A stretch of 44,187 nucleotides of DNA, taken from positions 1 through 44,187 of the forward strand of contig JAQXNS010000135.1 in the NCBI GenBank assembly GCA_029098125.1. The letters run 5' to 3'. The notes under the pieces are model-generated. The model did not search any database. It saw only the letters and a list, made by a program, of their open reading frames with translations, and was not told the DNA's origin. Positions 3,280-44,187 of this stretch are shown here, piece after piece (within the stretch, counting starts at the first letter, position 1; every line of letters starts with the position of its first letter). The translations under genes were made by a program, and so were the position numbers. This DNA comes from a bacterium. GTDB lineage: Bacteria; Bacillota_I; Bacilli_A; RFN20; CAG-826.

Positions 3280-3294
3280 AAAAACCCTGCAGAA
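3280..3294 (+). repeat. Dispersed 15-bp motif AAAAACCCTGCAGAA, copy 1 (intergenic)
   Basis: Exact match; 3276-3309 is identical over 34 bp to the reverse complement of 23138-23171. Confidence 0.95.
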
Positions 3295-3326
3295 CTCAAC
3301 TATTTTTGTAAAAATTGAATTTTTTC

Positions 3327-4280
3327 TTAGAATTCAAAATCTTTGTTGTGGAACTTTTCTTTTTCAAGATCCATGTCATCAGCAAGAGTTAAAGGAAGCT
3401 TTAATTCTGATGCATATTTGTTGATTTGTTCTTGATCAAGTTTCTTAAATAAACTAATTTTTGTCTTAGAAGTAAAATTGTTCATGAAAAGAAACAACTT
3501 ATTCTCTTTTAAAATGACAATTAATCTTGAAGAAATATCATCATCAAATTTCATCAAATTTAATTGAACTTGAGGTGTTATAACAAAGAACGCGAAAGCA
3601 GGATCATCACAAAAAACACTAAACCTTTTATTAAAATCCATAGATTCAAATTCAATAGCAGATTTCTTATTAGGTAATCTAAATGCTTCACCACCATTAT
3701 TTTTTTCCATAATTAATAAATAATGGTTAAACTTTCTTGGATATGTGAAAACATAAAATTTTCCTGGATTATGGTTTTCTGTACGATGTCTATTACCATC
3801 TTTGTCAGTATAATAATGATAAAAAATCAAATCATAATCTGCACCAACAAAAGTTAATCCTTCATTACTTGAACAAAAATAATTACTTGTTTTATATTCA
3901 TCTGGTCTATTCAAAATCTCAGATTGATTTAAAACTTCAAAAGAAAGACCTTTTGAGTAATCATAGCTATACCCTTCTTTGAAAAACATATTTAAAAAAT
4001 AATCTTTAAATTTTTCATTAATTTTTCGTTTAAATCTTGAATTAAAAAATGATTTAAAGACAAAAATAAACGTTATTCCAAGAATTATAAAGGCAAAACT
4101 TAATGCAAAGATTGTTTTGTAATCTTCAAAATCTTCGCTATACCATCCAAAAAAAGGCGTAGCAAATAAGAATAATCCAACAAATGCCACAGCAGAAGAA
4201 ATGCCCATTGCAATTAGGGCATTTTTTCTTATCTTTAATCTGTAAGCTTCTAAATTTTCAATTTCTTTTTCGTTATTCAT
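3327..4280 (-). CDS. DUF3137-like membrane protein (LemA-associated)
   Basis: Two N-terminal TM segments; ESMDFNKRFSVFCDD..AF..ITP motif; directly downstream of lemA. Confidence 0.7.
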   Translation of the reverse strand: MNNEKEIENLEAYRLKIRKNALIAMGISSAVAFVGLFLFATPFFGWYSEDFEDYKTIFALSFAFIILGITFIFVFKSFFNSRFKRKINEKFKDYFLNMFFKEGYSYDYSKGLSFEVLNQSEILNRPDEYKTSNYFCSSNEGLTFVGADYDLIFYHYYTDKDGNRHRTENHNPGKFYVFTYPRKFNHYLLIMEKNNGGEAFRLPNKKSAIEFESMDFNKRFSVFCDDPAFAFFVITPQVQLNLMKFDDDISSRLIVILKENKLFLFMNNFTSKTKISLFKKLDQEQINKYASELKLPLTLADDMDLEKEKFHNKDFEF

Positions 4281-4285
4281 TTAAA

Positions 4286-4870
4286 TTAGAATTCGAACTT
4301 AACGTCTTCACGTTTTTCTTCATCTGCTCTGAAGAAATCTTTATTTTCTGAGAAACCGATACGATTTGCAACAAATGAAGATGGGAAAGTAACTCTTCTT
4401 TGATTAAATGTTGAAACGTTTTGGTTGTAAACTCTACGTGCAGCTTGAAGTTGTTCTTCACAATCAGAAGTTCTTGCTTGAAGTGTTGAGAATTGAGAAT
4501 CAGCTTTTAATTGAGGATATTGTTCTAAAACAACATTAATTCCCCTTTGAACTTGATTGAGACTTGTGTTAAGTTGACTCTTTTCTTCGAGCGATAAATT
4601 GCTAATTCCTTGATTTGGATTTCTCATAGCAATTACTTTTTCTAATGTTTCAGATTCATGTTTTGCATAACCTTTAACAGTAGCGAGTAATTTTGTTAAT
4701 AAATCAAATCTTTTTGTTAATGCGACATCAATTCCGCTGTTTGCTTCATCAATTTTAACAGCTGCTCTTCTAAACCAGTTAGATGTTGAAATCCACCAAG
4801 CAACAATTGAAATAATAATGATTACAACAATTGCAATAATAACTAATGCAATAATTAATCCATCAGACAT
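4286..4870 (-). CDS. lemA: LemA family protein
   Basis: N-terminal TM segment; IDVALTKRFDL, VKGYAKHE, EQYPQLKA, AARRVYN, FPS motifs. Confidence 0.92.
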   Translation of the reverse strand: MSDGLIIALVIIAIVVIIIISIVAWWISTSNWFRRAAVKIDEANSGIDVALTKRFDLLTKLLATVKGYAKHESETLEKVIAMRNPNQGISNLSLEEKSQLNTSLNQVQRGINVVLEQYPQLKADSQFSTLQARTSDCEEQLQAARRVYNQNVSTFNQRRVTFPSSFVANRIGFSENKDFFRADEEKREDVKFEF

Positions 4871-5214
4871 ATTTTTTCCTCCATAACGTTAAATATTTTA
4901 ATATATTCAACAAAAGTTAAAAAGAAAATATTTAATAAACGAGCGAAAAAACACTACATTTTCATCATCAATTAAAATAAAAATGCAAGAATAAATTAAA
5001 AACTTCAAAAAATTCGAATTAATTCGTTATTTTTTAACAATTGGATTGAATAATGTGTCCAGAATTTGAGCAATATTAAAAGTGATTTAAATGAAGTAGT
5101 AGTTAAATAGTAGATTTCTAGTGGAAGATGTCGTGAACCCCAAATGTTGGACACGTTTGAAGCTTTATATATGCATCCATAAAGCTATACATGTTATAAA
5201 CAGGAGGGATTTCG

Positions 5215-5730
5215 ATGGCGAGTTACACACAAGATCAGAAAAGAGAAATTATTAAATGGAGAATTGAAAAAGGACTATCAACTATTAAACTTTCAAAAAA
5301 ATTTGGAATGAATGTTGAATCAGTTAGACAATTAATTCACAGGTATGAATTGCATGGTGAAAAAGCAATTACTCAAACATACATGGATTATAAGGTAGAA
5401 GATATTATCAAAATAATTTCAGAAGTTTACGAAGGCTCATCAAAAGTGGCAGTTGCAATTAAATATAATACTGTACCTGGTAGAATCAATAAACGGATTA
5501 AAATGTATGGTAAAAATGTTTATAATTGTCCTAAAGAAAGAAATAAAGAAAGGACAAAATCCGCCATGAGTAATCCCAAAAAAGTACTGCTAACTGATTC
5601 TGATAAAGACCTTGAAATTAAAAAATTAAAGGAAGAAAAATTAGAATTAGAAGCTGAGGTAGAAGCCTTAAAAAAATTGAGAGCCTTGGTTCTACAAAGA
5701 AATGCGCGACAACTAAAGAAAAAACAATAG
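5215..5730 (+). CDS. IS3-family transposase OrfA (HTH plus leucine zipper)
   Basis: GGAGG RBS; two HTH-like repeats; C-terminal coiled coil ending LEAEVEALKKL. Confidence 0.88.
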   Translation: MASYTQDQKREIIKWRIEKGLSTIKLSKKFGMNVESVRQLIHRYELHGEKAITQTYMDYKVEDIIKIISEVYEGSSKVAVAIKYNTVPGRINKRIKMYGKNVYNCPKERNKERTKSAMSNPKKVLLTDSDKDLEIKKLKEEKLELEAEVEALKKLRALVLQRNARQLKKKQ

Positions 5731-13770: not shown

Positions 13771-16700
13771 ATGAATTTTGTCCCGCTTCATATCCGAACT
13801 GGATATAGCTTTTTAAAAAGCTCGATTAGAATAGAAAAATTATTCGAAAAAGCCAAAAATTTAGGATATGAAGCGCTTGGACTTTGCGATTTAAGTAATT
13901 TTTACGCTTTACCAAAATTTGATAAATGCGCAAAAAGTTATAAATTTGGTTCGATTTATGGAACAGAAATAAAAATTGAATCAAATATTCTTTCTTTTTA
14001 TGCTCTAAATGAAGAAGGATATCGAAACATCAATAAAATTATTTCTTTATCATCTAAAAAATCTTTAGATTATAAAGAAATAACTTTTGAAGATATCAAA
14101 GAATATAACTCTGGAATTGCTTTAGTTATCTCAACTGATAATGAAATTTTTAATGCAGTTAATGAAAAATTAAAAGAATACATAAAAAATCTTAAAAATC
14201 TCTATCCTATTATATATATAGGAATAGAAATTTATGATTTTAAAGATAAAGCACACATTGATTTAATTAGAGATTTTGCTTTAAGCAACAACATCAACAC
14301 TTTTGCTTTTCCAAAAATTTATTATCTAAATAAAGAAGAAGCAATTTCTCTCGATATTTTAAAAGCAATTGAAGAAAATACCCAACTTTTTGATAATTTA
14401 AAACCAACTTTTACTGAATATTATTTAAAAAGTGAAGAAGAATATAGTACTTATTACACAAAAGAAGAGCTTTCGAATACGAAAAAATTCTTACTTTCAT
14501 CAGACTTTGTTTTTAATAAGCCTCGTGGTGAATTAATTCATTATTTAAGTGGTAATGAAAAAGAAACAAGTGATTATTTTATTAAATTAATTAACGAAGG
14601 CGCAAAAAAGAGAAATATCGACGTAACAAATCCAATTTATAAGAATAGATTAAATAAAGAATACGTCACAATTAAAAAATTAGGTTATATAAATTATTTT
14701 TTAGTCGTTCAAGATTATGTAAATTTTGCTAAATCCAACTCAATTCCAGTTGGTCCTGGCAGAGGTTCCGCTGCTGGAAGTTTAATTTCTTATTGTCTTG
14801 GAATTACAGATGTTAATCCAATAAAATATAATCTTTTATTTGAAAGATTTTTGAATATCAAAAGAAATTCAATGCCTGATATTGATATTGATATATCAGA
14901 TGTTCGTAGAGATGAAGTTATTGCATATCTAGCAAATAAATATGGGTCAACTCGAGTAGCTCGAGTTGCAGCATTTCAAACAATTGCTGCAAAACAAGCT
15001 TTAAGAGACACAGCAAGAGTTTTAAACACTCCTTCAACTATTATTAACGATTTAAGCAAAGCTATTCCTAATAATTTTAAAGATGAAAGTTCTAAAAATT
15101 TCTCTTTAGATTACGCTTATCAAAATATTCCGGCTTTTAAAGGTTTAGTAGATAGCGATGAACAATATAAAAATATTTTTAAGATAGCGCATTATATTGA
15201 AGGTTTACCTCGTCAAAGAGGACTTCACGCTGCAGGCATTGTTTTAAACGAAGAGAATTTACTTGGCTCTATACCTTGTGATTACATAACAGAAAATGAA
15301 CTTGTCACACAATTTGAGAAGGATTATTTAGAATCTCAAGGCTTTTTAAAGATGGATATTTTAGGTCTTTCAAACTTAACAATTATTGATAGATGTTTGA
15401 AAAATATTGAAAAAACCCTGCAGAAGTCCATTAAAATGGAAGAAATCCCATTTGAAGACCCTGATATTTTTAAGCTAATTAACAACTTTACAACCATGGG
15501 AATTTTCCAATTAGATACTAGCGCTTCATTAAATGCACTTTTAAATATTCGACCAAAAAATTTCTTAGAAGTCGTTGCAACTATCTCTTTAGATCGTCCT
15601 GGTCCAATGCAATTTATTCCAACTTATTCAAGACGTAAAGAAGGTAAAGAAAGAATTTCATATCTATCACCAGTTCTAAAACCAATCCTTGAAGAAACAT
15701 ATGGAATCATTGTTTACCAAGAACAAATCATGCAAATCGCTCAAATCTATAGTGGCTTCACTTTTGCTGATGCTGATATTTTTAGAAAGGCAATTTCAAA
15801 AAAAGATAGAAATGAAATTTTAAAAATGAAAGCTAGTTTCATAAATGGCGCCATTAAAAAAGGACATAAAGAGCAAGAAGCAGATATTCTTTTTGAACAA
15901 ATTTTAAAATTTGCTAATTATGGTTTTAATAAATCCCATGCAGTTAGCTATGCAATGATTGCTTGCAAAGAAGCATATTTAAAATGTAAATATCCACTTC
16001 AATTTTATTCTTCGATTTTAGATCAACAATATGGTTCAAATGATGTTAAATTCTCAAAATATCTAGCTGAGATTAAAAAAATGGGAATAAAAGTTCATTT
16101 GCCTGATATAAATCACTCAACTTTAAGATTTATTTCATATGATAATGGATTATTGATGCCACTTCTTGGTATATCAAACATGCAAACAAAAACCATCTAT
16201 AACATCATTGAGGATAGAGAAAATCATGGAGAATATACTTCTTTTGTTGATTTTGTTGTAAGAATGCTCAGAACTAAAGACAAAATTAGTGAATCTCAAT
16301 TATCTAAACTTATTGATGCAGGTGCTTTTGATAGTTTATATCCAAATAGAAAATCACTCAAAATGTCAATTCCAAACGCTATTCAATATGCGCAAAACAC
16401 ATTATTTGAAGAAGGCAAATTATTAAATGATTTTGGAATCAAATTTGAAATGTTTGAAGCATACGATGATCCAATTGATCGAATTAATAACGAAGTTGAA
16501 GCACTTGGTGTAATGATTAGTGATTCGCCATTAAATCACATCGATAAAAATATCTTAAATGCTCATAAAATCACACAAATTGACAATCTAAAAATGAACA
16601 TAGAAAGCGAAATTATAGCAATTGTTCGTTCAATTAAATCAATAGTTGTTAAAAATGGCAAAGATAAAGGTAAACCAATGGCATTTTTAACAGTATTTGA

Positions 16701-16860
16701 TGAAAGTGATGAACTTGATGTTACTATTTTTAGTAGTTTATGGGCAGATTATGTAACCGAAATCAAAGAAAATTCAATCTTATTAATTAAAGGCAAGGCT
16801 GAAATTAGAAATTCAAAACCAAGTATGATTGCACGTGAAATTAAAGTTATTGAGGGCTAA
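13771..16860 (+). CDS. dnaE: DNA polymerase III alpha subunit (DnaE)
   Basis: PHP N-terminus, GPGRGSAAGS, MPDIDID, KMDILGL, YGFNKSHA, C-terminal OB fold. Confidence 0.96.
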   Translation: MNFVPLHIRTGYSFLKSSIRIEKLFEKAKNLGYEALGLCDLSNFYALPKFDKCAKSYKFGSIYGTEIKIESNILSFYALNEEGYRNINKIISLSSKKSLDYKEITFEDIKEYNSGIALVISTDNEIFNAVNEKLKEYIKNLKNLYPIIYIGIEIYDFKDKAHIDLIRDFALSNNINTFAFPKIYYLNKEEAISLDILKAIEENTQLFDNLKPTFTEYYLKSEEEYSTYYTKEELSNTKKFLLSSDFVFNKPRGELIHYLSGNEKETSDYFIKLINEGAKKRNIDVTNPIYKNRLNKEYVTIKKLGYINYFLVVQDYVNFAKSNSIPVGPGRGSAAGSLISYCLGITDVNPIKYNLLFERFLNIKRNSMPDIDIDISDVRRDEVIAYLANKYGSTRVARVAAFQTIAAKQALRDTARVLNTPSTIINDLSKAIPNNFKDESSKNFSLDYAYQNIPAFKGLVDSDEQYKNIFKIAHYIEGLPRQRGLHAAGIVLNEENLLGSIPCDYITENELVTQFEKDYLESQGFLKMDILGLSNLTIIDRCLKNIEKTLQKSIKMEEIPFEDPDIFKLINNFTTMGIFQLDTSASLNALLNIRPKNFLEVVATISLDRPGPMQFIPTYSRRKEGKERISYLSPVLKPILEETYGIIVYQEQIMQIAQIYSGFTFADADIFRKAISKKDRNEILKMKASFINGAIKKGHKEQEADILFEQILKFANYGFNKSHAVSYAMIACKEAYLKCKYPLQFYSSILDQQYGSNDVKFSKYLAEIKKMGIKVHLPDINHSTLRFISYDNGLLMPLLGISNMQTKTIYNIIEDRENHGEYTSFVDFVVRMLRTKDKISESQLSKLIDAGAFDSLYPNRKSLKMSIPNAIQYAQNTLFEEGKLLNDFGIKFEMFEAYDDPIDRINNEVEALGVMISDSPLNHIDKNILNAHKITQIDNLKMNIESEIIAIVRSIKSIVVKNGKDKGKPMAFLTVFDESDELDVTIFSSLWADYVTEIKENSILLIKGKAEIRNSKPSMIAREIKVIEG
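15411..15425 (+). repeat. Dispersed 15-bp motif, copy 2 (inside dnaE)
   Basis: Exact AAAAACCCTGCAGAA, read as K-T-L-Q-K with ACC CTG CAG codons. Confidence 0.93.
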
Positions 16861-16863
16861 AAA

Positions 16864-19461
16864 ATGAGTAAAATTATAATCATCGACGGAAATAGTTTAT
16901 TATTTAGAGCATTTTATGCAACTTATCTTGATAAAGATAAAATCATGAGAACAAAAACTGGACAAGCAACTAATGCAATTTTTGCTTTTTCAAATATGTT
17001 AGCTCCAATTTTAACTTCATTAAAAAAGGATGATGGAATTTTTGTTGCATTTGATAAAGGTAAACACACTTTTAGACACAAAGAGTATGCTGAATACAAG
17101 GCAAATAGACCACCATGTCCAGAAGATTTATTGACACAAATGCCAATTGCAAGAGAACTTTTAGACAAGCTTGGAATCAAACATTATGAAGATGACAATC
17201 TCGAAGCTGATGATATTTGCGGAATTCTAGCAAAAAAAGCTGAAAAATTAGGCTATGAGGTCTTAATTTATACAAGCGATAAAGATTATTTGCAACTAAT
17301 TGACGACCATATCACAATCGAATTAATCAAAAAAGGTTTAAAAGATATAAAAGAAATGACTCCAACTTCATTTAAAGAAGAATGGGGTTTTGATCCAATT
17401 CAAATTACCGATTATAAAGGATTAAGAGGCGATGACAGCGATAATTTAAAAGGAATTCCTGGAGTTGGTGATAAAACCGCAAAAGATTTAATCACTCGTT
17501 TTCATAATTTAGAAAATATTATCGCTAATGCTGACACAAAAACAAAAGTTGGAAGAAATATCATTGAATTCCAAGATAACGGTAGACTATGTAAACGTCT
17601 TAGTGAGATTGCAGTTAATGAAGAAATTCCTGTTTCAATTGAAGAAGTATTATATAAAGGATATGACTTTAATGAGATTAGCGAATTTTCAACTCACTAT
17701 GAATTTAAGTATCTTCTTCCAAAATTACCAAAGAATTTTAGAAAGGAAAATACAAAACAAAAAGTCATAACTTTTGAAGAAATAGAGAACGCAGATGAGA
17801 TAGAAATTAAGGACGAAATTGCTCTTTTTGTTGACATCGAAAATGTCAATTATCATGAGGCAGAAATGAATGGTTTAGGCTTCGTTGCAAATGATAAAAA
17901 CTACTACATTTCTTTAAAAAACCTTGCAAAAAGCCAACATTTTTTGCAAATTCTAAAAAATCCAGCCATCAAAAAATATACTTTTGATTACAAAAAAGTA
18001 AGCGTTGTTTTAAAAAATAATAACATCGAAATTGATGGTTTATACTTTGATTTGTTGCTTGCAACTTACCTCATTGATTCATCACTTTCTAACGATATCG
18101 AAAGCGTTTTAGCTTACTATAAAGTTGATATTTCTTACGCATATAAAAACCAAGATTTGCTCTTTAACAACTCGTCAAAATTAGTCAGCGTCATCACTGC
18201 ATATTACTCAAAAGAACTATATCAAGAAGTAAAAGAAAAATTAGTTTCGCTCAACCAATATGAACTTTTAACAAATATTGAACAACCACTTACGATAGTT
18301 TTAAGCAGTATGGAAAGTGAAGGTTTTCCACTAAGTAAAGAAAAATTATTAGAATTTAAAACTGGCTACCAAGAAAAAGTCGATACATTGCAAAAAGAAA
18401 TTTATAGTTTGGCTAACGAAGAATTTAATATTAATTCTCCTAAGCAAGTTGGTGTAATTCTTTATGAAAAACTTGGCTTAACAAGCAACAAAAAAGGCTC
18501 AACAAGTGTTGAATATCTTTCTCAAATTAAATATGAACATCCAATTGTTTCAAAAATTCTTGAATATAGAAAATATCAAAAATTAATTTCAACATACATT
18601 GATGGTTTTATTCCATTTATTCAAAAAGATGGAAAAGTTCATCCAACTTTCAATCAAGCCTTAACTTCAACTGGAAGATTAAGTTGCAGCGAACCAAATT
18701 TACAAAACATCACAACAAGAGATGAAGAAAGCAAAAAAATAAGAGAAGCTTTTTTCTATGAAGATCCAAATTTAAATATTCTTTCTTTAGATTATTCTCA
18801 AATCGAATTAAGAATTCTTGCTTCTTTATCAAATTCAAAATCCTTAATCGACGCATTTAATAATAATTTAGATATTCACGCAGAAACTGCAAAAAAAGTA
18901 TTTAAATTAGATAGAGAACCAACAAGCAATGAAAGAAGACAAGCAAAAGCAGTAAATTTTGGCATTGTTTATGGAATTAGTGATTGGGGTTTAAGTGAGC
19001 AACTTGATATTAGCGTTGCTGAAAGCAAAAAAATCATTACAAATTTTTATGAAGCATATCCTGAAATTAGAGATTATTTAAATGGTCTTGTTGATTTTGC
19101 AAAGGATAATGGATACGCAAAAACTATGTTTGAAAGAAGAAGATATCTTCCTGAAATTAATAGTTCGCAATACCAATTAAGAGAATTTGCAAAACGCGCT
19201 GCAATGAACGCTCCTATCCAAGGTTCCGCTGCTGATTTAATAAAAATTGCAATGATTAATGTCTACAAAGCATTAAAAGAAAACAATTATGATGCAAAAA
19301 TTGTTTCTCAAATTCACGACGAATTAATCATTAAAGTAAATGATGATGAAAAAGATAAAGTCAAAGCTCTTGTTCAATATATCATGGAACATTCAGTTAA
19401 TCTAAATGTTTCATTAAAAGTAGATGGAGGTTATGCAAAGAATTGGTTCCTTGCTAAATAA
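16864..19461 (+). CDS. polA: DNA polymerase I
   Basis: IDGNSL.FRAF 5'-3' exonuclease, EADD, TGRLS, DYSQIELR, KAVNFGIVYG, QIHDE. Confidence 0.96.
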   Translation: MSKIIIIDGNSLLFRAFYATYLDKDKIMRTKTGQATNAIFAFSNMLAPILTSLKKDDGIFVAFDKGKHTFRHKEYAEYKANRPPCPEDLLTQMPIARELLDKLGIKHYEDDNLEADDICGILAKKAEKLGYEVLIYTSDKDYLQLIDDHITIELIKKGLKDIKEMTPTSFKEEWGFDPIQITDYKGLRGDDSDNLKGIPGVGDKTAKDLITRFHNLENIIANADTKTKVGRNIIEFQDNGRLCKRLSEIAVNEEIPVSIEEVLYKGYDFNEISEFSTHYEFKYLLPKLPKNFRKENTKQKVITFEEIENADEIEIKDEIALFVDIENVNYHEAEMNGLGFVANDKNYYISLKNLAKSQHFLQILKNPAIKKYTFDYKKVSVVLKNNNIEIDGLYFDLLLATYLIDSSLSNDIESVLAYYKVDISYAYKNQDLLFNNSSKLVSVITAYYSKELYQEVKEKLVSLNQYELLTNIEQPLTIVLSSMESEGFPLSKEKLLEFKTGYQEKVDTLQKEIYSLANEEFNINSPKQVGVILYEKLGLTSNKKGSTSVEYLSQIKYEHPIVSKILEYRKYQKLISTYIDGFIPFIQKDGKVHPTFNQALTSTGRLSCSEPNLQNITTRDEESKKIREAFFYEDPNLNILSLDYSQIELRILASLSNSKSLIDAFNNNLDIHAETAKKVFKLDREPTSNERRQAKAVNFGIVYGISDWGLSEQLDISVAESKKIITNFYEAYPEIRDYLNGLVDFAKDNGYAKTMFERRRYLPEINSSQYQLREFAKRAAMNAPIQGSAADLIKIAMINVYKALKENNYDAKIVSQIHDELIIKVNDDEKDKVKALVQYIMEHSVNLNVSLKVDGGYAKNWFLAK

Positions 19462-19463: not shown

Positions 19464-20852
19464 ATGCCTGAATTGCCAGAAGTTGAAACTGTAATTAATA
19501 CGATACGACCACATATCATAAATAAAGAAATCGAAAAAATTGAAGTATATTACGATAGACTAATCCAATCAAATTTGGATGAATTCAAGACCAAATTAAT
19601 CAATCAAAAATTCATCAATGTAACTCGTTATGGAAAGTTTATTTTTCTTCATTTAACAAATGATTTTGTAATCATTACGCACCTTAGAATGGAAGGGAAA
19701 TTTCGTTTTGAAAATTCTCATAATTTAAGAAAAAAGCACACTTCTGCAGGGTTTTTCTTTAAAGATGGCACTTCTTTAGCCTTTGATGACACTAGAAAAT
19801 TTGGATTAATGTATCTTAGCGATGAAGCAAATTTTAAAGAAACAAAGATGATTAAAAAGTTAGGAATTGAAGCTAATAAAATTAGTGAAAATGACTATGA
19901 ATTTTTGATCAAAAAATTCAAAAAAAATAAATGCATAAAAGAATTATTATTAGATCAATCTATCCTTGCTGGAATTGGAAATATTTACGCTGATGAAATT
20001 TTATTTTCAACAAAAATTAATCCTTTTAGAAAAGGAAATGATATTAGCGATGAAAAATATCATGAAATTTTTCAAGCATCAAACCAAATACTTAATAAAG
20101 CAATTACATTAGGTGGATCAACAATCCACTCCTTCCATCCAAGCGAAGGGGTTGATGGAAAATTCCAAGAAACTTTACTTTGTTATGGAAAAAGTGGAAC
20201 ACCATGTCCAAATTGTAATACAACTTTACACAAAGATTTTATTGGAGGACGAGGCACAACTTTTTGTCCAAATTGTCAAATTGATAAATCTTTAGAAAAA
20301 GGAATTGCAATAACTGGTCCTATAGGAAGTGGAAAATCAACAATCTTAAATTATTTTAAAGAAAAAGGGTTTATCACATATAGTTGCGATGAGATGGTTC
20401 ATAAATTATATGAAAAACCAGAAATTTCAAGAAAAATCTCACAAATTTTAAACGCACCTTTTGATATAAACAATAAAAAAACTACAAGACTTGCAAGAAA
20501 AATTATGATTGATAATCCTGAAATCAAAAAGAAAATCGAATCATATATTTATCCAATTCTTGAAAAAGAAATGGTATTAATTATTAAAAACAACGAAAAG
20601 CCAGTTTTTGAAGTCCCAACTTTATTTAAAGCACATCTAGAATATTTATTTAAAACTATTATCGTTATTGAGATTTCAAAAGAACAACAAATTAAAAATT
20701 TAGAAAATAGAAACGATGACATCAACTCATCGATTAATCTAAATAAAGATTACGAAATCAAAAAATACCAAGATAAAATAAAAATTGTTAAAGCTGATGG
20801 TAACTTTAACAATTTATATGCTCAAATTGATGAAATTATTAAATCAATATAG
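19464..20852 (+). CDS. mutM-coaE: Fused formamidopyrimidine-DNA glycosylase (MutM/Fpg) and dephospho-CoA kinase (CoaE)
   Basis: MPELPEVET, HLRMEG, GIGNIYADE, CPNC..CPNC zinc finger, then in-frame ITGPIGSGKST CoaE-type P-loop and EVPTLF. Confidence 0.88.
   Translation: MPELPEVETVINTIRPHIINKEIEKIEVYYDRLIQSNLDEFKTKLINQKFINVTRYGKFIFLHLTNDFVIITHLRMEGKFRFENSHNLRKKHTSAGFFFKDGTSLAFDDTRKFGLMYLSDEANFKETKMIKKLGIEANKISENDYEFLIKKFKKNKCIKELLLDQSILAGIGNIYADEILFSTKINPFRKGNDISDEKYHEIFQASNQILNKAITLGGSTIHSFHPSEGVDGKFQETLLCYGKSGTPCPNCNTTLHKDFIGGRGTTFCPNCQIDKSLEKGIAITGPIGSGKSTILNYFKEKGFITYSCDEMVHKLYEKPEISRKISQILNAPFDINNKKTTRLARKIMIDNPEIKKKIESYIYPILEKEMVLIIKNNEKPVFEVPTLFKAHLEYLFKTIIVIEISKEQQIKNLENRNDDINSSINLNKDYEIKKYQDKIKIVKADGNFNNLYAQIDEIIKSI
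19742..19756 (-). repeat. Dispersed 15-bp motif, copy 3 (inside mutM)
   Basis: TTCTGCAGGGTTTTT on the + strand, read as T-S-A-G-F-F. Confidence 0.93.
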
Positions 20853-21726: not shown

Positions 21727-22959
21727 CTAATCTCCTAAATCAAAATCAACTTCACTATTTTCAAATTTTGAAAAATCTACTTCTTCTTCATCAAAAGAAT
21801 CATCATTTTTAATTTGATCTTCTTCATTTTTTGCTTTAATTGTTGCCTTGGATTCATCATAAAGCACATTTATAACGTCAAGAGTTGATTTGCATTTTTT
21901 TCTAATTAATGTTGATGCAAGCTTTAAAATATAGTTTTTAGATAGCTCACCATCTTTTTTAGTTAAAACAAAATCAATTAAAGCATTGATCATTCCACTT
22001 GAAAAATTAAATTCAAAAGCAAGTCTTTCAAGCAAATTCTTATCAGCATCAACTACATCAATTCCATTTTGTTTTTCTTTTAAAAATAGTCTTGGCGCTG
22101 TTTCTTCATATTTACGAATTTTTGTTGCCCATTCGCTATTTCCATTAACATTTGATTTCTTTAAAACTTTAATTTCATTAGGTGTAAAGCTTTTAACCAC
22201 TGCTTTTGCCTTTCTTTTTACTTCATTTTCATCAAATTTTCTGCCTTTTGGACCAAATGGGTTGTAACATTCACTTAAAATCGATCCAATTACTTCTTCG
22301 CTTAATCCATAAAGGGTTCCAACTTTATGAGCAAATTCTATATATTTTTCATCGAATTCTTTGACATTAATTTGTGTGTTTTTCTTTAAATAGTTAAGCA
22401 ATTTGATATCAGAAAAATTGTCTTTGATATTATTTTTGCTTCTTCCAAGAAGTTTATCACCACTATTCATATCTAAAGCTTTGACATCAAAAATAACTTG
22501 GAAACTGTCTTGAATTTTTGCAGATTGATTGACATAATCTTCTTCATTAACTTTAGTTTCGTATTTACTGATAATCTCAAAAAATCTTTCTTCACCAACC
22601 GTCTCAATAAATAGTCCTTTTAAAACAAGGTTATTAAAGAAGTTTTTAGGTGTTTCTACATCGTTTAATATATATAAATAGGAAGAAGAATCATTTTTTT
22701 CATAAAAAGAAAGAAGTCCGATTGATTCAAGTGTCTTTTTAGCAAATAAAAAGTCCTGAAGTGACATTTCACATTTATTGATTAATTCATTAGTTGTTGA
22801 AAAAATGCGATTTGTTTTAATTGAATTCATTAAAAACATATACAAAAAAGCACTGTCTTTACCAATGAGTGGCAAATATAGATCAAATAAATAATTTAAT
22901 GAGCCCTCTTCTAAAAGGCCTCTTTTTGTTATTTCAATTTTCAAATCAACATTAATCAT
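21727..22959 (-). CDS. dnaB: Firmicutes replication initiation/membrane attachment protein DnaB (DnaB/DnaD family)
   Basis: LYLPLIG...LY, LESIGLL, P..FF...L, IN.LI.FVL....L..NYI..LA patterns; paired with dnaI. Confidence 0.8.
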   Translation of the reverse strand: MINVDLKIEITKRGLLEEGSLNYLFDLYLPLIGKDSAFLYMFLMNSIKTNRIFSTTNELINKCEMSLQDFLFAKKTLESIGLLSFYEKNDSSSYLYILNDVETPKNFFNNLVLKGLFIETVGEERFFEIISKYETKVNEEDYVNQSAKIQDSFQVIFDVKALDMNSGDKLLGRSKNNIKDNFSDIKLLNYLKKNTQINVKEFDEKYIEFAHKVGTLYGLSEEVIGSILSECYNPFGPKGRKFDENEVKRKAKAVVKSFTPNEIKVLKKSNVNGNSEWATKIRKYEETAPRLFLKEKQNGIDVVDADKNLLERLAFEFNFSSGMINALIDFVLTKKDGELSKNYILKLASTLIRKKCKSTLDVINVLYDESKATIKAKNEEDQIKNDDSFDEEEVDFSKFENSEVDFDLGD

Positions 22960-23152
22960 CTTAATGATTATAAACTACTTAAAATTAATTTTTAAGTTTA
23001 ACTTTAATTTCAACAACAATTAATTCGTCGACTTTTGTGTTCTAGTACCAAATATAGAAAGCAAAAATTTTGAATTTTTTAATCATATAAAATATCAAAT
23101 AATCAATATTAAATATGTATCAATCTTTTCAATTTAAACAAAAATAGTTGAG

Positions 23153-23167
23153 TTCTGCAGGGTTTTT
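23153..23167 (-). repeat. Dispersed 15-bp motif, copy 4 (dnaB/pfkA intergenic)
   Basis: Exact match; 34-bp identity with copy 1 and 27-bp identity (23152-23178) with copy 5. Confidence 0.95.
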
Positions 23168-23300
23168 GAGAAATTTTTTGAATTTTTGTACCTTTCACCG
23201 CCCCATTTTTTAAACAATTTTTTATGTAAATTAATCAAAAAATATAGCAACTGTTAATATTATAATTTATAATATTAAGCGTTTAGGAGGCAATTTTGCT

Positions 23301-24260
23301 ATGGTTAAAAAAATTGGTATTCTCACAAGCGGCGGAGACTCACAAGGAATGAACGCAACTTTATTAGGTGCTATTAGAACAGGATGCCGTTTAGGAAAAG
23401 AAATGTATGTTGTCTATGATGGCTATAAAGGATTAATCGACAATAACTTTGTAAAAGTTGGTCCTGATTTTATGGATCAAACTTACAATAAAGGTGGAAC
23501 AGTTATCAAAACTAAACGTCTTCCAGAATTTAAAGAAGAAAGAGTTAGAAAAATCGCAGTTGAAAATTTAAAGAAAGAAGGAATCGAAGCTTTAATTGTT
23601 ATTGGCGGCGATGGCTCTTACATGGGTGCTAAAAAATTAACTGAAATGGGCATCAACTGTGTTGGTTTACCAGGAACTATTGATAACGATATTTCAAGTA
23701 GCGATTTTACAATCGGTTTTGACACTGCTTTAAATAATGTTGTCACTGCAATTGATCAAATCAAAGAAACAATGAGTTCTCATAATAGATGTTGCTTAAT
23801 TGAAGTTATGGGAAACAAATGTCCAGATTTAACACTTTTTGCTGGCATCGCATGTAAAGCTGATTATATCGTTACTGCAGATAGACCACTTGAAGAAAAA
23901 GAACTTATTGAAAGTTTGAAAAAAGATAAAGAAGAAGGTAAAGATTGTGAAATCGTTTTAATTTCAGAAAAATTATACGATTTAAATGAATTAACAAAGC
24001 ATATTAAAGAACAAACTGGTTGGGATACAAGAAACGATGTTTTAGGTTACATCCAAAGAGGTGGCGCTCCAACTGCTATGGAAAGATTCAACTCAATTAG
24101 AATGGGTAGCTATGCAGTCGAACTACTTGATCAAGGTATCGGTGGCGTTTGCGTTGGACTTGTTAACAACGAATTAAAATATTTTGATATTCTAGAAGCA
24201 CTAGATTTCCCAAGAAATAAACACTTAGATTTATACAAAACTTACGATTTAATCAAGTAA
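23301..24260 (+). CDS. pfkA: ATP-dependent 6-phosphofructokinase
   Basis: TSGGD, IGGDGSY, PGTIDND, EVMG, LGYIQRGG. Confidence 0.95.
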   Translation: MVKKIGILTSGGDSQGMNATLLGAIRTGCRLGKEMYVVYDGYKGLIDNNFVKVGPDFMDQTYNKGGTVIKTKRLPEFKEERVRKIAVENLKKEGIEALIVIGGDGSYMGAKKLTEMGINCVGLPGTIDNDISSSDFTIGFDTALNNVVTAIDQIKETMSSHNRCCLIEVMGNKCPDLTLFAGIACKADYIVTADRPLEEKELIESLKKDKEEGKDCEIVLISEKLYDLNELTKHIKEQTGWDTRNDVLGYIQRGGAPTAMERFNSIRMGSYAVELLDQGIGGVCVGLVNNELKYFDILEALDFPRNKHLDLYKTYDLIK

Positions 24261-25734: not shown

Positions 25735-25996
25735 TTTACAAATTTTAAAAATAGGACTAAACTAATCTTGCAACGACGAAGACATGTTGCTTTAACCTTT
25801 ATATTATTAGAGAAAGAAACATTTGGTGAAAGTTTCTAATATAAAATCTAGCAAAACTACTTCCGAGCATTTAAGGAAACTTAACGATTAAGCTATCGAC
25901 AAAGTTAGAATGAAGTGATTAAGATTTTTTTCTTAATAACTAAGGTGGTACCACGTAAATAATGCGTCCTTAGAGTTTATCTCTAAGGACTTTTTT
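25735..25996 (+). promoter_or_regulatory. Promoter and T-box riboswitch leader of thrS
   Basis: TTTACA-N17-TAAACT promoter; AGAGA and GGTGA stem I motifs; probable Thr specifier ACT at 25856-25858; T-box AAGGTGGTACCACG at 25942-25955; terminator GTCCTTAGAG-tttat-CTCTAAGGAC-T6. Confidence 0.9.
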
Positions 25997-26012: not shown

Positions 26013-27941
26013 ATGGAATTAAAATTACTCGATGGAAAAATTTTAAATTTAGAAGAAGGTAAAAATGGTCATGATGCAGCACTATTAATCAGCGAAGGTC
26101 TTGCTAGAAATTCACTTGCTTACAAACTTAATGGTGAACTTTTTGATCTATACACACCAATTAAAGAAAGTGGCGAGTTTGTCATTATAACTTCAAAAAG
26201 TGAAGAAGCTAAAGATATTTTAAATCACTCCGCTGCTCATTTAATGGCAGAGGCTATATCCTTATTATATAAAGGTGTGAAATTTGGTGTCGGCCCTGCA
26301 ATCGAAGAAGGTTTTTATTATGACGTTGATTTTAACGGTTATGTCTTAAAAGAAGAAGATTTAGCAAAAATCGAAGCAAAAATGAAGGAACTTTCAAAGA
26401 AAAACGAATATATCGTTAGAAAAAACGTCTCAAAAGAAGAAGCTTTAGAAATTTTTAAAAATGATGAATACAAAAAAGAATTAATTAATGAATTAGAAGG
26501 AAATATTTCTATTTACAAACAAGGTGAATATATAGATTTATGTCGTGGACCTCATGTTCCATCAACTGGTTTTATAAAATATTTCCATCTTGATAATATT
26601 GCTGGTGCATATTGGAGAGGCGATTCTAAAAATAAACAACTAACAAGAATTTATGGTGTTGCTTCATTTTCAAAAGAAGAACTTGAACATATTTTATTCA
26701 TTAGAGAAGAAGCAAAGAAAAGAGATCATAGAAAAATTGGTAAAGAACTTGGCTTATTTACAATTTCAGAGTATGGTCCAGGTTTCCCATTCTATTTACC
26801 AAATGGTTTAATGCTTAGAAGACAAATTGAAAACTGGTGGTATGATATTCATGATGAATACGGATACAAATTAATCAAGACTCCAATTATGTTATCAAAA
26901 GAGCTTTGGTTAACAAGCGGTCACTGGGACCACTACAAAGAAAATATGTACACAACAAAGATTGATGATAGAGACTTTGCAATCAAACCAATGAACTGCC
27001 CTGGATCAATTCTTGTTTACAACAATGAACTTCATTCATACAAAGATCTTCCATTAAGACTTGGTGAATTAGGTCTTGTTCATAGACACGAAGCAAGTGG
27101 AGCTTTAAATGGTTTATTCAGAGTTAGATGTTTCACTCAAGATGATGCTCATATTTTCTGTACACGTGATCAATTAAAATCTGAAATCGAAACATTATTA
27201 AAACTTTACGACAAAATTTACAGTGTTTTTGGCTTAAAATATTCTATCGTCTTATCAACAAAACCAGAATCAGACTATATTGGAGATGATGCAATCTGGG
27301 AACAAAGCGAAAAAATCTTAGCTGATGCATGTAGAGCAACAGGAAAAGATTTTAAAATTAATCCTGGTGATGGCGCTTTCTATGGTCCAAAACTTGATTT
27401 TAAACTCAAAGATTGTATGGGTAGAATTTGGCAATGTGGAACAATTCAACTCGATATGAATCTTCCAGAAAGATTTGATTGCACATATATCAACTCAAAA
27501 GGTGAAAAAGAAAGACCAATCATGCTTCATAGAGCAATTCTTGGTTCATTTGAAAGATTTATTGGTATCATCACAGAGAATTTTGCTGGTGCTTTCCCAA
27601 CATGGTGTGCTCCACTTCAAGTCAAAGTTCTTCCTGTAAACGACGAAGTTCATAGCGAATATGCAAATCAAGTCGTTAACACTTTAAGAAAACACAAAAT
27701 TAGAGTTGAACTTGATCCAGCAAGTGAAAAATTAGGGTACAGAATGAGAAATGCTCAAATCAAGAAAATCCCTTACACACTTGTTATTGGTGACAAAGAA
27801 AAAGAAAATAATGCTGTAACATATAGAAAATATGGATCAAAAGATCAAATCACAGTTTCTCTTGATGAATTCATTAAGTTAATTGAAAACGAAATTGAAA
27901 CTAAAGCATTATTAATCGATCCAGAAAAGATGGCTTTATAA
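26013..27941 (+). CDS. thrS: Threonine--tRNA ligase
   Basis: HSAAH and DLCRGPH editing motifs, RDHRKIG, KPMNCPG, FYGPKLD, HRAILGSFER. Confidence 0.97.
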   Translation: MELKLLDGKILNLEEGKNGHDAALLISEGLARNSLAYKLNGELFDLYTPIKESGEFVIITSKSEEAKDILNHSAAHLMAEAISLLYKGVKFGVGPAIEEGFYYDVDFNGYVLKEEDLAKIEAKMKELSKKNEYIVRKNVSKEEALEIFKNDEYKKELINELEGNISIYKQGEYIDLCRGPHVPSTGFIKYFHLDNIAGAYWRGDSKNKQLTRIYGVASFSKEELEHILFIREEAKKRDHRKIGKELGLFTISEYGPGFPFYLPNGLMLRRQIENWWYDIHDEYGYKLIKTPIMLSKELWLTSGHWDHYKENMYTTKIDDRDFAIKPMNCPGSILVYNNELHSYKDLPLRLGELGLVHRHEASGALNGLFRVRCFTQDDAHIFCTRDQLKSEIETLLKLYDKIYSVFGLKYSIVLSTKPESDYIGDDAIWEQSEKILADACRATGKDFKINPGDGAFYGPKLDFKLKDCMGRIWQCGTIQLDMNLPERFDCTYINSKGEKERPIMLHRAILGSFERFIGIITENFAGAFPTWCAPLQVKVLPVNDEVHSEYANQVVNTLRKHKIRVELDPASEKLGYRMRNAQIKKIPYTLVIGDKEKENNAVTYRKYGSKDQITVSLDEFIKLIENEIETKALLIDPEKMAL

Positions 27942-27944: not shown

Positions 27945-28409
27945 GTGAAAACTAACGTAATGAGAATACTTGATTCAAATAATATCAAGTATTCTCAATA
28001 TGAATATGAAGCAAATCAATCATTAACTGGTGAAGAAATCGCTTCAATTTTACATGAAGATGTTAAATCAGTATTTAAAACTTTAATAACAAAAGGAAAA
28101 AGTAATGACTATTATGCCTTCATGATTCCAGTAAATAAAGAATTAGATTTAAAAAAGGCAGCAAAGACAGTTTGTGAAAAAAGTGTTGAAATGATTCCTT
28201 TTAAAGATCTATTAAAAATTACTGGTTATGTTCATGGAGGATGTTCACCACTTGGATTAAAAAAAGACTACCAAGTTTCAATTGACGAATCTGTTTTAGC
28301 TTTAGAAGAATTATATTTTTCTGGAGGTAAAGTTGGTGTTCAAGTCAAAGTTAAAGTTGATGATTTTTTAAATCTAGCACATCCAAAAATAGCAGACCTT
28401 GTAAAGTAA
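27945..28409 (+). CDS. ybaK: YbaK/EbsC family aminoacyl-tRNA deacylase
   Basis: KTNVMRILD, VFKTL, LDLKKAA, TGYVHGGCSP.G, SGGK.G. Confidence 0.9.
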   Translation: MKTNVMRILDSNNIKYSQYEYEANQSLTGEEIASILHEDVKSVFKTLITKGKSNDYYAFMIPVNKELDLKKAAKTVCEKSVEMIPFKDLLKITGYVHGGCSPLGLKKDYQVSIDESVLALEELYFSGGKVGVQVKVKVDDFLNLAHPKIADLVK

Positions 28410-28425
28410 TTTACAAGGTTTTTTT
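28396..28425 (+). terminator. Intrinsic terminator after thrS-ybaK
   Basis: ACCTTGTAAA-gtaa-TTTACAAGGT followed by a T run. Confidence 0.85.
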
Positions 28426-28439
28426 CAAAAATAATGGGG

Positions 28440-28454
28440 TTCTGCAGGGTTTTT
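28440..28454 (-). repeat. Dispersed 15-bp motif, copy 5 (convergent intergenic region)
   Basis: Exact TTCTGCAGGGTTTTT followed by GAGAAATTTTT, as in copy 4. Confidence 0.95.
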
Positions 28455-28561
28455 GAGAAATTTTTACAAAATCAAATTAAATGAATGTTATAGCGAGAAA
28501 TAAGCCCTTAAATATTTTTATTAATTAGATCAAATTTAATGCCATTGCTATTAAAAATATC

Positions 28562-41245: not shown

Positions 41246-41376
41246 TTTAAAAACTCATAAACTTAATATCTAATTTATGAGTAGCAGATAAGAGTTCTAA
41301 ACTATTGGTTTAGCATTTACAAAATTATGTTAAGCCAATAATATAAAACTCTTGCCTTATCATTTAAAAACTCATA
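41246..41376 (-). other. Structured intergenic element with terminator-like hairpin and 14-bp direct repeats
   Basis: TTTAAAAACTCATA at 41246-41259 and 41363-41376; hairpin 41253-41282; nested inverted repeats 41290-41353. Confidence 0.55.
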
Positions 41377-41430
41377 TCGAATTTACTATATATAATTTAT
41401 TTAATAATAAATTTTTAAAATTTATAACCT

Positions 41431-41459
41431 AAAAATGAGGTGCTATAAAGCACCCCATT
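41431..41459 (-). terminator. Intrinsic terminator after the starch-binding lipoprotein gene
   Basis: Minus strand AATGGGGTGCT-ttat-AGCACCTCATT-TTT. Confidence 0.8.
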
Positions 41460-41468
41460 AAAGATTAA

Positions 41469-42485: not shown

Positions 42486-42562
42486 TTAAATATATCCTCC
42501 TAAGTTAAAAATAGCACATTAAAATTTTACGTTTTAAGTAAAAACTACTTTAAAAAAATATT

Positions 42563-42607
42563 TAATGTAAGTGCTTACATTATATTCATCCTTAAAAAAG
42601 AAAACAA
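42563..42607 (-). promoter_or_regulatory. Promoter of the starch locus with overlapping LacI-family/cre-like operator
   Basis: TTGTTT(42607-42602)-N17-TATAAT(42584-42579); near-perfect palindrome TAATGTAAG-TG-CTTACATTA at 42563-42582. Confidence 0.75.
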
Positions 42608-42754
42608 GATAAAAACATAATTTTACTTAACTAAAAACATAGATTTGATGTTTTTTATCTTTTTACTGGTAATACTTTCTAATGTATCGTTTCAATATAT
42701 ATACATTATAAAAATTTATACATAAAAATTTATAATCATATTATAATTTAAAGC

Positions 42755-44187
42755 GTGATTGAAATTAAAAATCTAACAAAAATCTATAAAAATAAGAATA
42801 AAACAAACACAAAGGCTTTAAATGATGTTTCGTTTTCCTTGCCTGATAGTGGTTTTGTTTTCATTTTAGGAAAAAGTGGATCTGGAAAGTCAACTTTAAT
42901 TAATTTATTAGGAGACCTTGATTCCAAAACATGCGGAGATATATTAGTTGATGGAGAATCGCTTTACACACTTAATAATGAAAAAAGAAGAGAATATAAA
43001 GCGTCATATTGCGGATTTATTTTTCAAGACTATCGTTTAATTAATGAATTAACAGTTAAAGAAAACATCCTTATTTCTCTTGAAATTATTAACGATATAT
43101 ATAATAAGGATAATAGGCTAAAAGAAGTTCTTAGCAAAGTAGATCTTGATGGATATGAAGATAAAATGGTTAATGAACTTAGTGGAGGAGAAAAGCAAAG
43201 GGTTGCAATTGCAAGAGCTCTAATTAAAAATCCAAAAATAATTCTTTGTGATGAACCAACTGGAAATCTTGATAAAAACACTTCTACTAAGATATTAGAC
43301 ATATTAAAAGAAATTTCTAAATCTTGCTTAATCTTTATGGTCAGCCATGATGAAAGCGCAAGTTTAAAATATGCTTCACGTAGAATAATTCTAGAAGAAG
43401 GAAAAATAATAAAAGATGAGATAAGAAATGCTGATTATAAAAATGAATGTTTAGTTGAAAACGGCACACTCTTTTTGCCATTTGAAAAGAATTTAAGCGA
43501 TGAAGAAAAAGAAAAAATCAAACAAGATTTAAAGAATAACAACATAAAAAGAATTGAACAATTAGATAATGGTTTTAAAGAGAATCACACCACTTACAAA
43601 TCTCAAAATATTCAAAAAACACTGCAGAACTCCACTAAAATTGAAAAAAACTTAAAAAATAGACTTCTTGGAAGATACTTTAAAAAAGGGATTTTTTCAT
43701 CAATTTTAAATTCAATTTTGTTTTCTCTCTTGACGATTTTATTGATTCTAGTCCAGACTTTTATAAACTTTGATTCTTCAAAAATTGTTTTAGATAACAT
43801 CGATTTAAACAATCAAAAAAATATAGTAATTACAAAAACAAAAATGCTCGAAGAAGTAAACAAAAAAACAATAATTAGTTTTAGCAATGAGGAAAAAGAA
43901 GAATTATTTGGAAAAGATATAAAATATTATCCTTATATAAATTACTCCTCATCACTAAAAAAAGAATTTTATGGATCAATAACAATCGATGGAGTTTTAC
44001 CAGGTTCAAAAGAATATTTATACGAAAGTTCCTTGTATGTAGTTAAAGTAATTGGCACTGCTATTGTTGATAAAGAATATTTAAGCAATACTTTTAACGA
44101 TGGAAAAGAGATTGAAGTATTAGCTGGTGATATTAATGATACCTTACACCCATATGGCGTCATCCTCACTGATTATCTTGCTGATTC
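42755..44187 (+). CDS. ABC ATP-binding domain fused to a probable permease (MacB/FtsX-like), partial
   Basis: Not in the ORF track (no stop in the window). GTG start; GKSGSGKST, GFIFQ, LSGGEKQRVAIARAL, CDEPTGNLD, VSHD; TM segment near 43690-43760. Confidence 0.88.
   Translation, partial: MIEIKNLTKIYKNKNKTNTKALNDVSFSLPDSGFVFILGKSGSGKSTLINLLGDLDSKTCGDILVDGESLYTLNNEKRREYKASYCGFIFQDYRLINELTVKENILISLEIINDIYNKDNRLKEVLSKVDLDGYEDKMVNELSGGEKQRVAIARALIKNPKIILCDEPTGNLDKNTSTKILDILKEISKSCLIFMVSHDESASLKYASRRIILEEGKIIKDEIRNADYKNECLVENGTLFLPFEKNLSDEEKEKIKQDLKNNNIKRIEQLDNGFKENHTTYKSQNIQKTLQNSTKIEKNLKNRLLGRYFKKGIFSSILNSILFSLLTILLILVQTFINFDSSKIVLDNIDLNNQKNIVITKTKMLEEVNKKTIISFSNEEKEELFGKDIKYYPYINYSSSLKKEFYGSITIDGVLPGSKEYLYESSLYVVKVIGTAIVDKEYLSNTFNDGKEIEVLAGDINDTLHPYGVILTDYLAD
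43615..43629 (+). repeat. Dispersed 15-bp motif, copy 6 (one mismatch, inside the ABC gene)
   Basis: AAAAACACTGCAGAA followed by CTCCACTA; read as K-T-L-Q-N, the same frame as in dnaE. Confidence 0.8.

Follow-up and report, generated by a model that had tools for sequence, protein, structure and literature searches.

The contig JAQXNS010000135.1 of assembly GCA_029098125.1 (hereafter the window, meaning the whole stretch of 44,187 nucleotides that was analysed) belongs to an uncultured gut bacterium of the GTDB lineage Bacillota_I; Bacilli_A; RFN20; CAG-826, and carries scattered copies of a non-palindromic DNA motif of about 46 bp whose 15-base core recurs throughout the genome. The source genome (G000) is a fragmented metagenome bin of 1,426,882 bases in 140 contigs with 28.9% G+C, in which the window is contig C135, and the sequencing runs that contain the window are for the most part labelled as pig gut metagenomes. 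Within the window, thrS is preceded by a T-box leader, a DnaB_2-like gene is present, and dnaE, polA and an fpg-coaE fusion follow one another; as a set, these genes resemble those of Bacillota. A first-pass annotation had singled out the 15-mer as an unexplained dispersed signal with five exact copies and one single-mismatch copy, three of them inside genes. All six are found, at the positions and in the genes given below. The recurrent 15-mer thus stands, but the true unit extends over about 46 bp, and the extents quoted here correspond to model columns 6-51 of the information profile.

Three copies in the window are intergenic and match the motif over its full length. The first (3270..3315, plus strand, core 3280-3294) lies between a tRNA-Phe gene (2735-2810) and the 3' end of a DUF3137 gene (3327-4280, minus strand). 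The second (23132..23177, minus strand, core 23153-23167) is located between the DnaB_2-like gene (21727-22959, minus strand) and pfkA (23301-24260, plus strand) and, as annotated, has 34 bases in common with the first. The third (28419..28464, minus strand, core 28440-28454) carries a CCCCAT variant of the right half, and the extended motif begins 10 nt, and the core 31 nt, past the stop of an open reading frame (ORF) at 27945-28409 on the plus strand. The remaining copies lie in coding sequence. The copy in dnaE (15401..15446, plus strand, exact core 15411-15425; gene 13771-16860) reads E-K-T-L-Q-K in the protein, matches 17 of 30 flank positions and is recovered by nhmmer at 15397-15451 with an E-value of 2.5e-7. 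Within polA there is a two-mismatch core, AAAAACCTTGCAAAA (17917..17931, plus strand), which was absent from the earlier list and whose two changes are the two most frequent variant positions of the motif family. The copy in the fpg part of the fpg-coaE ORF (19721..19766, minus strand, core 19742-19756; nhmmer E 1.1e-5) runs antisense to the gene, where G000 has T-S-A-G-F-F and relatives have T-S-[LM]-I-F-Y. Lastly, an ABC-transporter-like ORF (42755-44185) contains a one-mismatch copy (C7>A; 43605..43650, plus strand, core 43615-43629; nhmmer E 2.1e-5) that reads Q-K-T-L-Q-N-S-T-K, and a paralogue on contig C126 has an exact copy at the same residue. Counting up to two mismatches the window holds seven matches (five exact, one with one and one with two mismatches) where 0.28 are expected, and none of 100 dinucleotide shuffles of the window attains seven.

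In public data the intergenic copies pile up contigs from four runs of four studies, with depths of 99-554 against about 7-40 elsewhere. Loose contig ends at 23140/23141 and 23173-23187, and at 28421 and 28460, delimit a common block (23141-23177 and 28421-28460). Short-read assemblies break at the motif, which is also usable as a marker of the lineage. Among its neighbours in the window, the fpg-coaE ORF (19464-20852, plus strand) encodes 462 aa in which a formamidopyrimidine-DNA glycosylase (Fpg) is fused to dephospho-CoA kinase (CoaE); three relatives (G047, G043 and G019) match the fusion over its full length and a fourth (G002) has both parts on separate contigs. The T-box leader (25764-25974, plus strand; 95.3 bits at a gathering score of 93) is upstream of thrS (26013-27941), and the tRNA-Asp (GTC) and tRNA-Phe (GAA) genes stand in tandem at 2645-2810 on the plus strand, about 470 bases upstream of the first motif copy.

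The enrichment holds outside the window. G000 contains 68 exact copies on 45 of its 140 contigs, and counts at zero, one, two and three mismatches are 68, 74, 55 and 92 compared with 0, 0, 5.5 and 71.7 in six order-3 Markov simulations, the excess shrinking as the mismatch load grows. A profile search recovers 155 copies at E<=1e-3 and 133 at 1e-5, and the number of sites per genome is put at about 150-210. All 25 top-ranked over-represented 12-mers of G000 derive from the motif, the top one with 101 copies against 0.5 expected, and the whole 15-mer is present at 68 of the 78 CCCTGCAG octamers. Allowing one mismatch in a 13-mer, there are 147 copies in the 1.43 Mb of G000 and 85 in 394 kb of a related species, G074, or about one per 10 kb and one per 5 kb. 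Where the annotation had roughly one per 7 kb, the overall density is put at about one per 7-10 kb. The copies occupy both strands without polarity, as first described: 33 exact copies are on the plus and 35 on the minus strand, orientation by GC skew is 55 versus 75 of 130 copies, and the mean co-orientation with local genes is 0.46. In a further species, G018, 13 copies are forward and 14 reverse. Like Chi and the FtsK orienting polar sequences (KOPS), the motif is a chromosome-wide word that also occurs in coding DNA, but those words are short and co-oriented with replication, and on the balance of strand and skew counts a polar word is rejected.

Plotted by column, the information content forms a bell about 46 columns wide and sums to about 52 bits. 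In order the motif comprises an A/T tract, TCTC, AAAAACCCTGCAGAAC, YCMAY, TATTTTTG and an A tract, and the aligned flanks of the exact copies give the consensus aaaAtTTCTC-AAAAACCCTGCAGAA-CTCAACTATTTTTGtAAAAA. The only palindrome inside this asymmetric consensus is the 6-base CTGCAG. A link of the CTGCAG and CTGCAGATCT sites to a modification system is conceivable.

Gene calls were made with a crude ORF-scoring script (89% coding) that missed or mis-started some genes, and the coding and intergenic counts are therefore approximate. On this basis the 155 copies divide into 76 that lie entirely between genes, 37 that run across a gene end and 42 that lie wholly inside ORFs, and 47 of the 142 copies with at most one mismatch, about one third, fall in ORFs. 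These ORFs encode ArgS, DnaE, Fpg, AsnA, AtpG, an AddA-like helicase and a PP-loop (TilS-like) protein, and further TrkH, a GH2 (LacZ-like) beta-galactosidase, a GH65 protein, an FGGY kinase and ABC ATPases. A stop codon lies no more than about 20 bases from many of the copies, whichever way these point, and the distance to gene starts is mostly 40-200 bases. The annotation's remark that there is no consistent placement relative to promoters is borne out, as the direction of the motif has no fixed relation to the neighbouring genes (107 copies: classes of 27, 16, 22 and 24, plus 18 at contig ends). Position and random direction argue against a promoter, operator or RNA signal. By eye no sigma-70-like pair of hexamers with proper spacing was seen (no scan was made), and a promoter or operator was rejected. 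So was an RNA element, since at Rfam gathering thresholds the window yields only the T-box and the two tRNAs, folds of the motif are unremarkable and its orientation is random.

The key result concerns the coding copies, which on alignment with relatives are written over existing codons by substitution and are not inserted. The genus is represented by 60 species genomes, G000 included (labelled G0xx), and the order by a further 16 from other genera; the relatives compared are distant, with DnaE proteins 45-63% identical to that of G000. The test covers six housekeeping genes, two further loci having given no alignment, and none of the six shows a motif-length insertion, that is, the 15-16 extra codons expected of an inserted 46-mer. 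DnaE is gapless across a 62-residue stretch in 28 of 29 relatives, and the site reads GAA AAA ACC CTG CAG AAG in G000 compared with GAA AAA ACC CGC AAA ACT in the closest relatives. The copy in ArgS matches 24 of 30 flank positions and 28 of 29 relatives are gapless there, AsnA is gapless in three of three, and Fpg has no indel at the motif in four of four, the conserved strand HTS[LM]IFYFKDG having become HTSAGFFFKDG. For AddA one of two alignments has no gaps, and in the other two gaps of 4 residues cancel out. Relatives thus keep the same length at the motif, AtpG alone differing in that the G000 protein is longer by two residues. The coding copies use four of the six frames, two in sense (KNPAE, KTLQN) and two in antisense (FCRVF, SAGFF), and the two frames in which the consensus has stops are almost unused. 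Coding copies match 19.0 of 30 flank positions on average and intergenic copies 24.7.

The variation among copies is itself uneven. In one-mismatch copies the central T-G-C-A is changed 2, 2, 0 and 0 times in G000 and 3, 1, 0 and 0 times in G074, whereas two of the C's of the core are changed 14 and 17 times in G000 and the G that follows TGCA 30-34 times. This G is fixed in G074 (no changes) and replaced in all 10 copies of a third species, G055, while the TGCA centre is near-invariant in all three genomes and the outer flanks of the motif vary by species. Neutral decay in an A+T-rich genome would strike all G/C positions alike, and the uneven pattern therefore points to recognition. A near-invariant TGCA among other G/C positions that vary freely is, as far as substitution counts can be read, the signature of sequence recognition plus drive or selection.

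The motif is patchy among relatives. The 14-mer AAACCCTGCAGAAC occurs 60 times in G000, 48 times in G074, 27 in G018 and 13 in G058, 11 other species of the genus have 1-5 copies, 45 have none, and it was not found in the 16 genomes from other genera. The motif and its dialects are thus present in other species, though in only some of the genus. A quickly built DnaE tree covering 32 of the 60 genomes places the motif in seven of the eight members of one clade; G000 falls in a different clade, as a solitary long branch, and the nine genomes grouped with it have 0-3 copies. The sequences of G074, G055, G019 and G018 were covered only in part, at about 25-40% (394 kb of G074, 400 kb of G055 and 347 kb of G019). 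In G074 the top word is AAACCCTGCAGA with 57 copies, which occurs in two forms, ...GAAC and ...GATCTC. The second form, AAACCCTGCAGATCTC, matches the ...GAAC form in abundance, with 34 and 28 copies over the 394 kb (loci L193-L212), and joins CTGCAG to an overlapping AGATCT palindrome. Copies in G074 also carry an extra upstream A5-N5-8-T5 module that is absent in G000, and 27 of the 57 lie in long ORFs, one of which resembles the C-terminal part of AlaS by eye only. In G055 (26% G+C) the top words are AAACCTTGCAAA (13 copies) and AAACCCTGCAAA (11 copies), in the form AAACC[C/T]TGCAAA. A metagenome scan with PfkA yielded nothing closer than 76% identity, and tblastn searches for horizontally transferred genes, run with G000 ORFs against partial G074, G018, G055 and G019, gave only highly conserved housekeeping-type genes among the matches of highest identity.

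Turnover of the motif can be followed in G013 and G048, a pair of species that are 92-96% identical. Both have two copies in identical form, and the orthology of a third is uncertain; a 1-base deletion or one or a few point changes separate the two species at three more sites, and at one site 5 of 15 core bases are changed beside 60 identical bases. No 46-bp indel was seen at the four aligned orthologous sites examined base by base, the partner region being unrecovered for two sites. Three coding sites could be aligned between G074 and G055, where the motif is present in each species' own dialect at one, as half a motif at another and not at all at the third, likewise without a motif-length insertion. 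In these alignments orthologous copies change by point substitution. At one G013 locus (L298, around 2003) and its partner in G048, a terminator-like hairpin (...TCCATTT...AAATGGA, with a run of T's after it) has the motif core in its loop, an arrangement conserved in both.

Components for DNA import are present. comEA was detected in all five genomes searched. In G000 the locus at C3:70370-72909 (minus strand) holds comEA, comEC and a further ORF in a row, the last of which stands where holA is found in Bacillus. comEC is intact in G000, a tblastn search with the G019 protein aligning 694 aa at 41% identity, and the report of no ComEC in G000 or G018 from a genome search with Pfam PF03772 is a false negative for G000. 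A pilus ATPase locus is above the Pfam cut-off in 46 of the 60 genomes. That of G000 (C70:271-4128, L323) is a Tad/Com-like pilus locus that comprises a T2SSE-type ATPase, a pair of membrane proteins, one protein of 114 aa and, in tandem, two small pilin-like ORFs (63 and 57 aa), both of which map to a single region in seven relatives. Its content is the same in motif-rich (G000, G074, G058), low-count or dialect (G013, G055) and motif-poor (G019, G047, G053) genomes, and the duplicated small pilin of G000 is the only difference among these eight. No difference in content across these eight genomes tracks the motif, and on this comparison the pilus locus is not supported as the source of a receptor. 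Nor do competence genes follow the motif: comEA, comEC and pilus genes are present with and without it, and they do not explain its patchy distribution.

Taken on the alignments and counts above, some force appears to act on the sequence itself, turning near-matches into one long motif at unchanged length and at a cost to proteins, and it appears to respect a 4-base centre and to shift the preferred form from species to species. The best-known process of this kind is the molecular drive of DNA uptake sequences, in which biased uptake plus recombination accumulates a preferred motif (Findlay and Redfield 2009; Bakkali 2007; Mell et al. 2012; Frye et al. 2013). It is tentatively proposed, at somewhat less than an even chance of being right, that the motif marks self DNA and has been spread through a drive in which transfer or recombination favours the sequence, in the manner of the DNA uptake sequences (DUS) of Neisseriaceae and the uptake signal sequences (USS) of Pasteurellaceae. 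A putative DNA-binding component, part of the DNA-import machinery or of another gene-transfer or recombination route, would read the small invariant TGCA centre among phased A/T tracts. DNA with a better match would be transferred or recombined more often, and near-matches genome-wide would then be driven toward the motif by ordinary substitutions. Copies would settle where they are cheapest, namely just past stops and in poorly conserved protein stretches, in frames that avoid stops.

The motif resembles DUS and USS in several respects. Both show strong over-representation on both strands, in genic and intergenic DNA, and a graded excess of mismatched forms (Bakkali 2007). Both have dialects, and a critical core of 3-4 bases within a wider motif, which in the known systems contains T-rich tracts (Mell et al. 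2012; Frye et al. 2013) and here has A/T-rich flanks. Known uptake sequences fall at poorly conserved residues, with 34.5-65% of them in ORFs (Findlay and Redfield 2009), and the coding copies described here likewise lie at poorly conserved residues and in favoured frames. The motif matches none of the known classes against which its defining features were tested, as the annotation had judged, and it also differs from DUS and USS. Those have 9-12 bases, whereas this motif, with its 15-base core, spans about 46 bp and is far longer and, at about 52 bits, far richer; it is about ten times sparser; its host belongs to the class Bacilli and not to a Gram-negative family; and it is found in only some species of the genus. 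Neisseria has the receptor ComP, whereas no receptor that co-varies with the motif was seen in the pilus-locus content of the eight genomes.

Several of these differences weigh against a self tag. Genomes of roughly 2 Mb with uptake sequences hold 765-1892 copies (Findlay and Redfield 2009), and the density found here, roughly ten times below that, does not approach one per kilobase. Sequence-specific uptake is, in the literature consulted, described only for two Gram-negative families, Pasteurellaceae and Neisseriaceae. Only four of the 60 genus genomes have at least 13 exact 14-mers, the close relatives of G000 have 0-3, and de novo word counts in 347 kb of G019, one such relative, gave no comparable k-mer. 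Competence and pilus genes occur irrespective of the motif, and no reader protein was found, the comparison of pilus-locus content having covered eight genomes. The annotation's notion of a protein-recognised genome-wide signal is partly supported: the motif does extend through the genome, and the substitutional coding copies, which give the strongest new support, and the constraint on TGCA would fit recognition. In G013 and G048 the cores are no better conserved than their flanks, which indicates that the force is not acting everywhere. Lastly, over about 40 bp there is hardly any difference between the intergenic copies, as copying would also produce, and four diverged copies on contig C9 lie in a longer repeat of 250-400 bp, so that some copies have spread by duplication.

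These last observations lead to the rival that survives best, although it is considered rather unlikely: a miniature mobile repeat akin to the repetitive extragenic palindromic (REP) sequences, in which a selfish element, about 46 bp long or with these 46 bp as its conserved middle, would copy itself within intergenic DNA and would sometimes overwrite near-matches by short-patch gene conversion. Besides the near-identity of the intergenic copies, the C9 repeat and the patchy species distribution, such a repeat would account for the information content, as about 14 bits would suffice for 150 sites (log2 of 2.85 million positions over ~155 sites), and for the fully intergenic location of 76 of 155 copies in a genome that is 89% coding. 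The break-points of internal duplications also fall at motif edges in 12 of 417 cases compared with 2.3 expected. The C9 copies, around 2079, 5178, 9995 and 41554, are diverged and sit in the middle of a repeat that is 78-88% identical; three of the four are among ORFs that resemble AAA-ATPase defence-island genes by eye only. At two G013 loci (L296:3319-3469 and L301:2001-2152) the same 138-140 bases directly follow the motif, past ...GAACCCC / ...AAATCCCC, and encode the C-terminus of an rve_2 integrase-core transposase (E 5.8e-11), so that an IS3-like element appears to have inserted twice at the same point of the motif. Some insertion sequence (IS) elements land at REP.

REP sequences, the bacterial interspersed mosaic elements (BIME) built around them and miniature inverted-repeat transposable elements (MITEs) are recognised by imperfect palindromes, terminal inverted repeats or target-site duplications. 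The motif resembles them as a short dispersed repeat that is mostly intergenic, often just past stops, and an IS landing site, but none of these hallmarks is present and one third of its copies are in genes without an insertion. The first-pass opinion that it is not a hairpin agrees with the tests, and no finding marks it as the end of an IS or MITE: six folds (the three intergenic window copies, both strands) gave z-scores from -1.72 to +1.68, a terminal inverted repeat was not detected (4 of 14 positions match), no target duplication was found beyond the motif's own A tracts (the best candidate is a 4-mer in these tracts, 32 against 22.6 by permutation), and the information profile has no sharp ends. 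A hairpin repeat or classic MITE was rejected on these grounds. Mutual information is confined to neighbouring columns, which means that there are no master-copy subfamilies, and the absence of long-range linkage between variant positions does not fit copying from a source element. Further against such a repeat are the six coding copies out of six without a motif-length insertion, the G013 and G048 orthologues that differ by point changes and not by presence or absence of a 46-bp block, and the G/C positions hit far too unevenly for neutral decay. Gene conversion, moreover, needs homology that is lacking at new sites. Viral contigs yielded only 11 single matches, and a phage-borne repeat was rejected. 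Rickettsia palindromic elements, which are insertions adding tens of residues, similarly lie in frame inside housekeeping genes, but here protein length is unchanged. The HIP1 of cyanobacteria is a short palindrome of much higher density with no agreed function; like the present motif it is a lineage-restricted oligomer iterated by substitution through coding and non-coding DNA, whereas the present motif is long and asymmetric.

It is unlikely, more so than a mobile repeat, that a chromosome-organising or nucleoid protein such as Noc, SlmA, MatP or a ParB-like factor binds the copies as an array of sites, which selection on the host would maintain. The number of roughly 150-210 sites per genome, in genic and intergenic DNA on both strands, would suit such a role, as would the position-specific constraint around TGCA and the A/T tracts, which may be spaced about one helical turn apart, the phasing being a reading of the consensus. 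The sites of Noc, SlmA and MatP and parS are palindromic, whereas this motif is asymmetric save for CTGCAG, and its information content is far above the need of about 150 sites. Close relatives lack it, and its drift in G013 and G048, which resembles that of neutral DNA, would be odd for a housekeeping organiser.

A signal for recombination or repair, either a hotspot where exchange starts or stops or the site of a site-specific recombinase, is regarded as improbable. It is suggested by an argS pseudo-fragment (C137:664-1071) whose start coincides exactly with the left edge of a motif copy. The fragment is 408 bases long, frameshifted and 95% identical to the resident argS (C137:3645-5297, minus strand), which has an internal motif copy at the matching place. 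All 13 differences past residue 100 are synonymous, indicating that the fragment stems from a diverged functional allele. Imported DNA joined at the motif through homology-facilitated illegitimate recombination would give such a junction, but so would an assembly that fused two strains, and the latter possibility counts against its use as evidence. A 5' piece of trkH and a piece of a third gene also end at motif edges, but these make only three clean cases, and the excess of break-points, though real, is partly trivial because the motif itself extends alignments. Neither the strand polarity of Chi or KOPS nor, on a reading of the consensus, a layout of two arms and a spacer is apparent.

An artefact, whether from adaptor sequence, from chimeric assembly or from chance matches in A+T-rich DNA, could be suspected from the fragmented bin of 140 contigs and from contig pairs that are 95-97% identical over hundreds of bases, but is counted as refuted by the absence of exact copies from the Markov simulations, the in-frame copies inside conserved genes, the presence of the motif in contigs of four runs from four studies and in genomes of other species, and the 13 of 155 copies near contig ends compared with 9.1 expected. 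The pairs C99/C15, C51/C130 and C19/C73 have stretches of 400-660 bases that are 96-97% identical, which suggests recent duplications or a second strain in the bin.

The candidate processes are not mutually exclusive, and in Neisseria repeat families also embed uptake sequences. If the motif is instead a selfish repeat it would be an unusual one, overwriting codons without changing the length of the protein. The self tag remains the preferred reading, and its bolder form, to be regarded as doubtful though possible, is that of a third independent family of uptake or transfer-bias sequences and the first in Bacillota: a long TGCA-centred tag with species dialects and a putative receptor, driven into essential genes of uncultured gut Bacilli. 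No report of an over-represented uptake sequence in Firmicutes was found (supplements lay outside the search), and the motif string itself appeared only in eight papers that, judged by titles on human, virus and E. coli subjects, are unrelated; to this extent the lineage is, as first supposed, one with no known system of the kind. The motif provides a defined 46-base bait with which a reader protein could be sought. Were the proposal true, it would show that kin-biased exchange tags evolve repeatedly, and the tag would reveal between which gut species DNA is exchanged. Shared dialects would then predict exchange partners, so that gene flow could be traced in gut bacteria that are uncultured.

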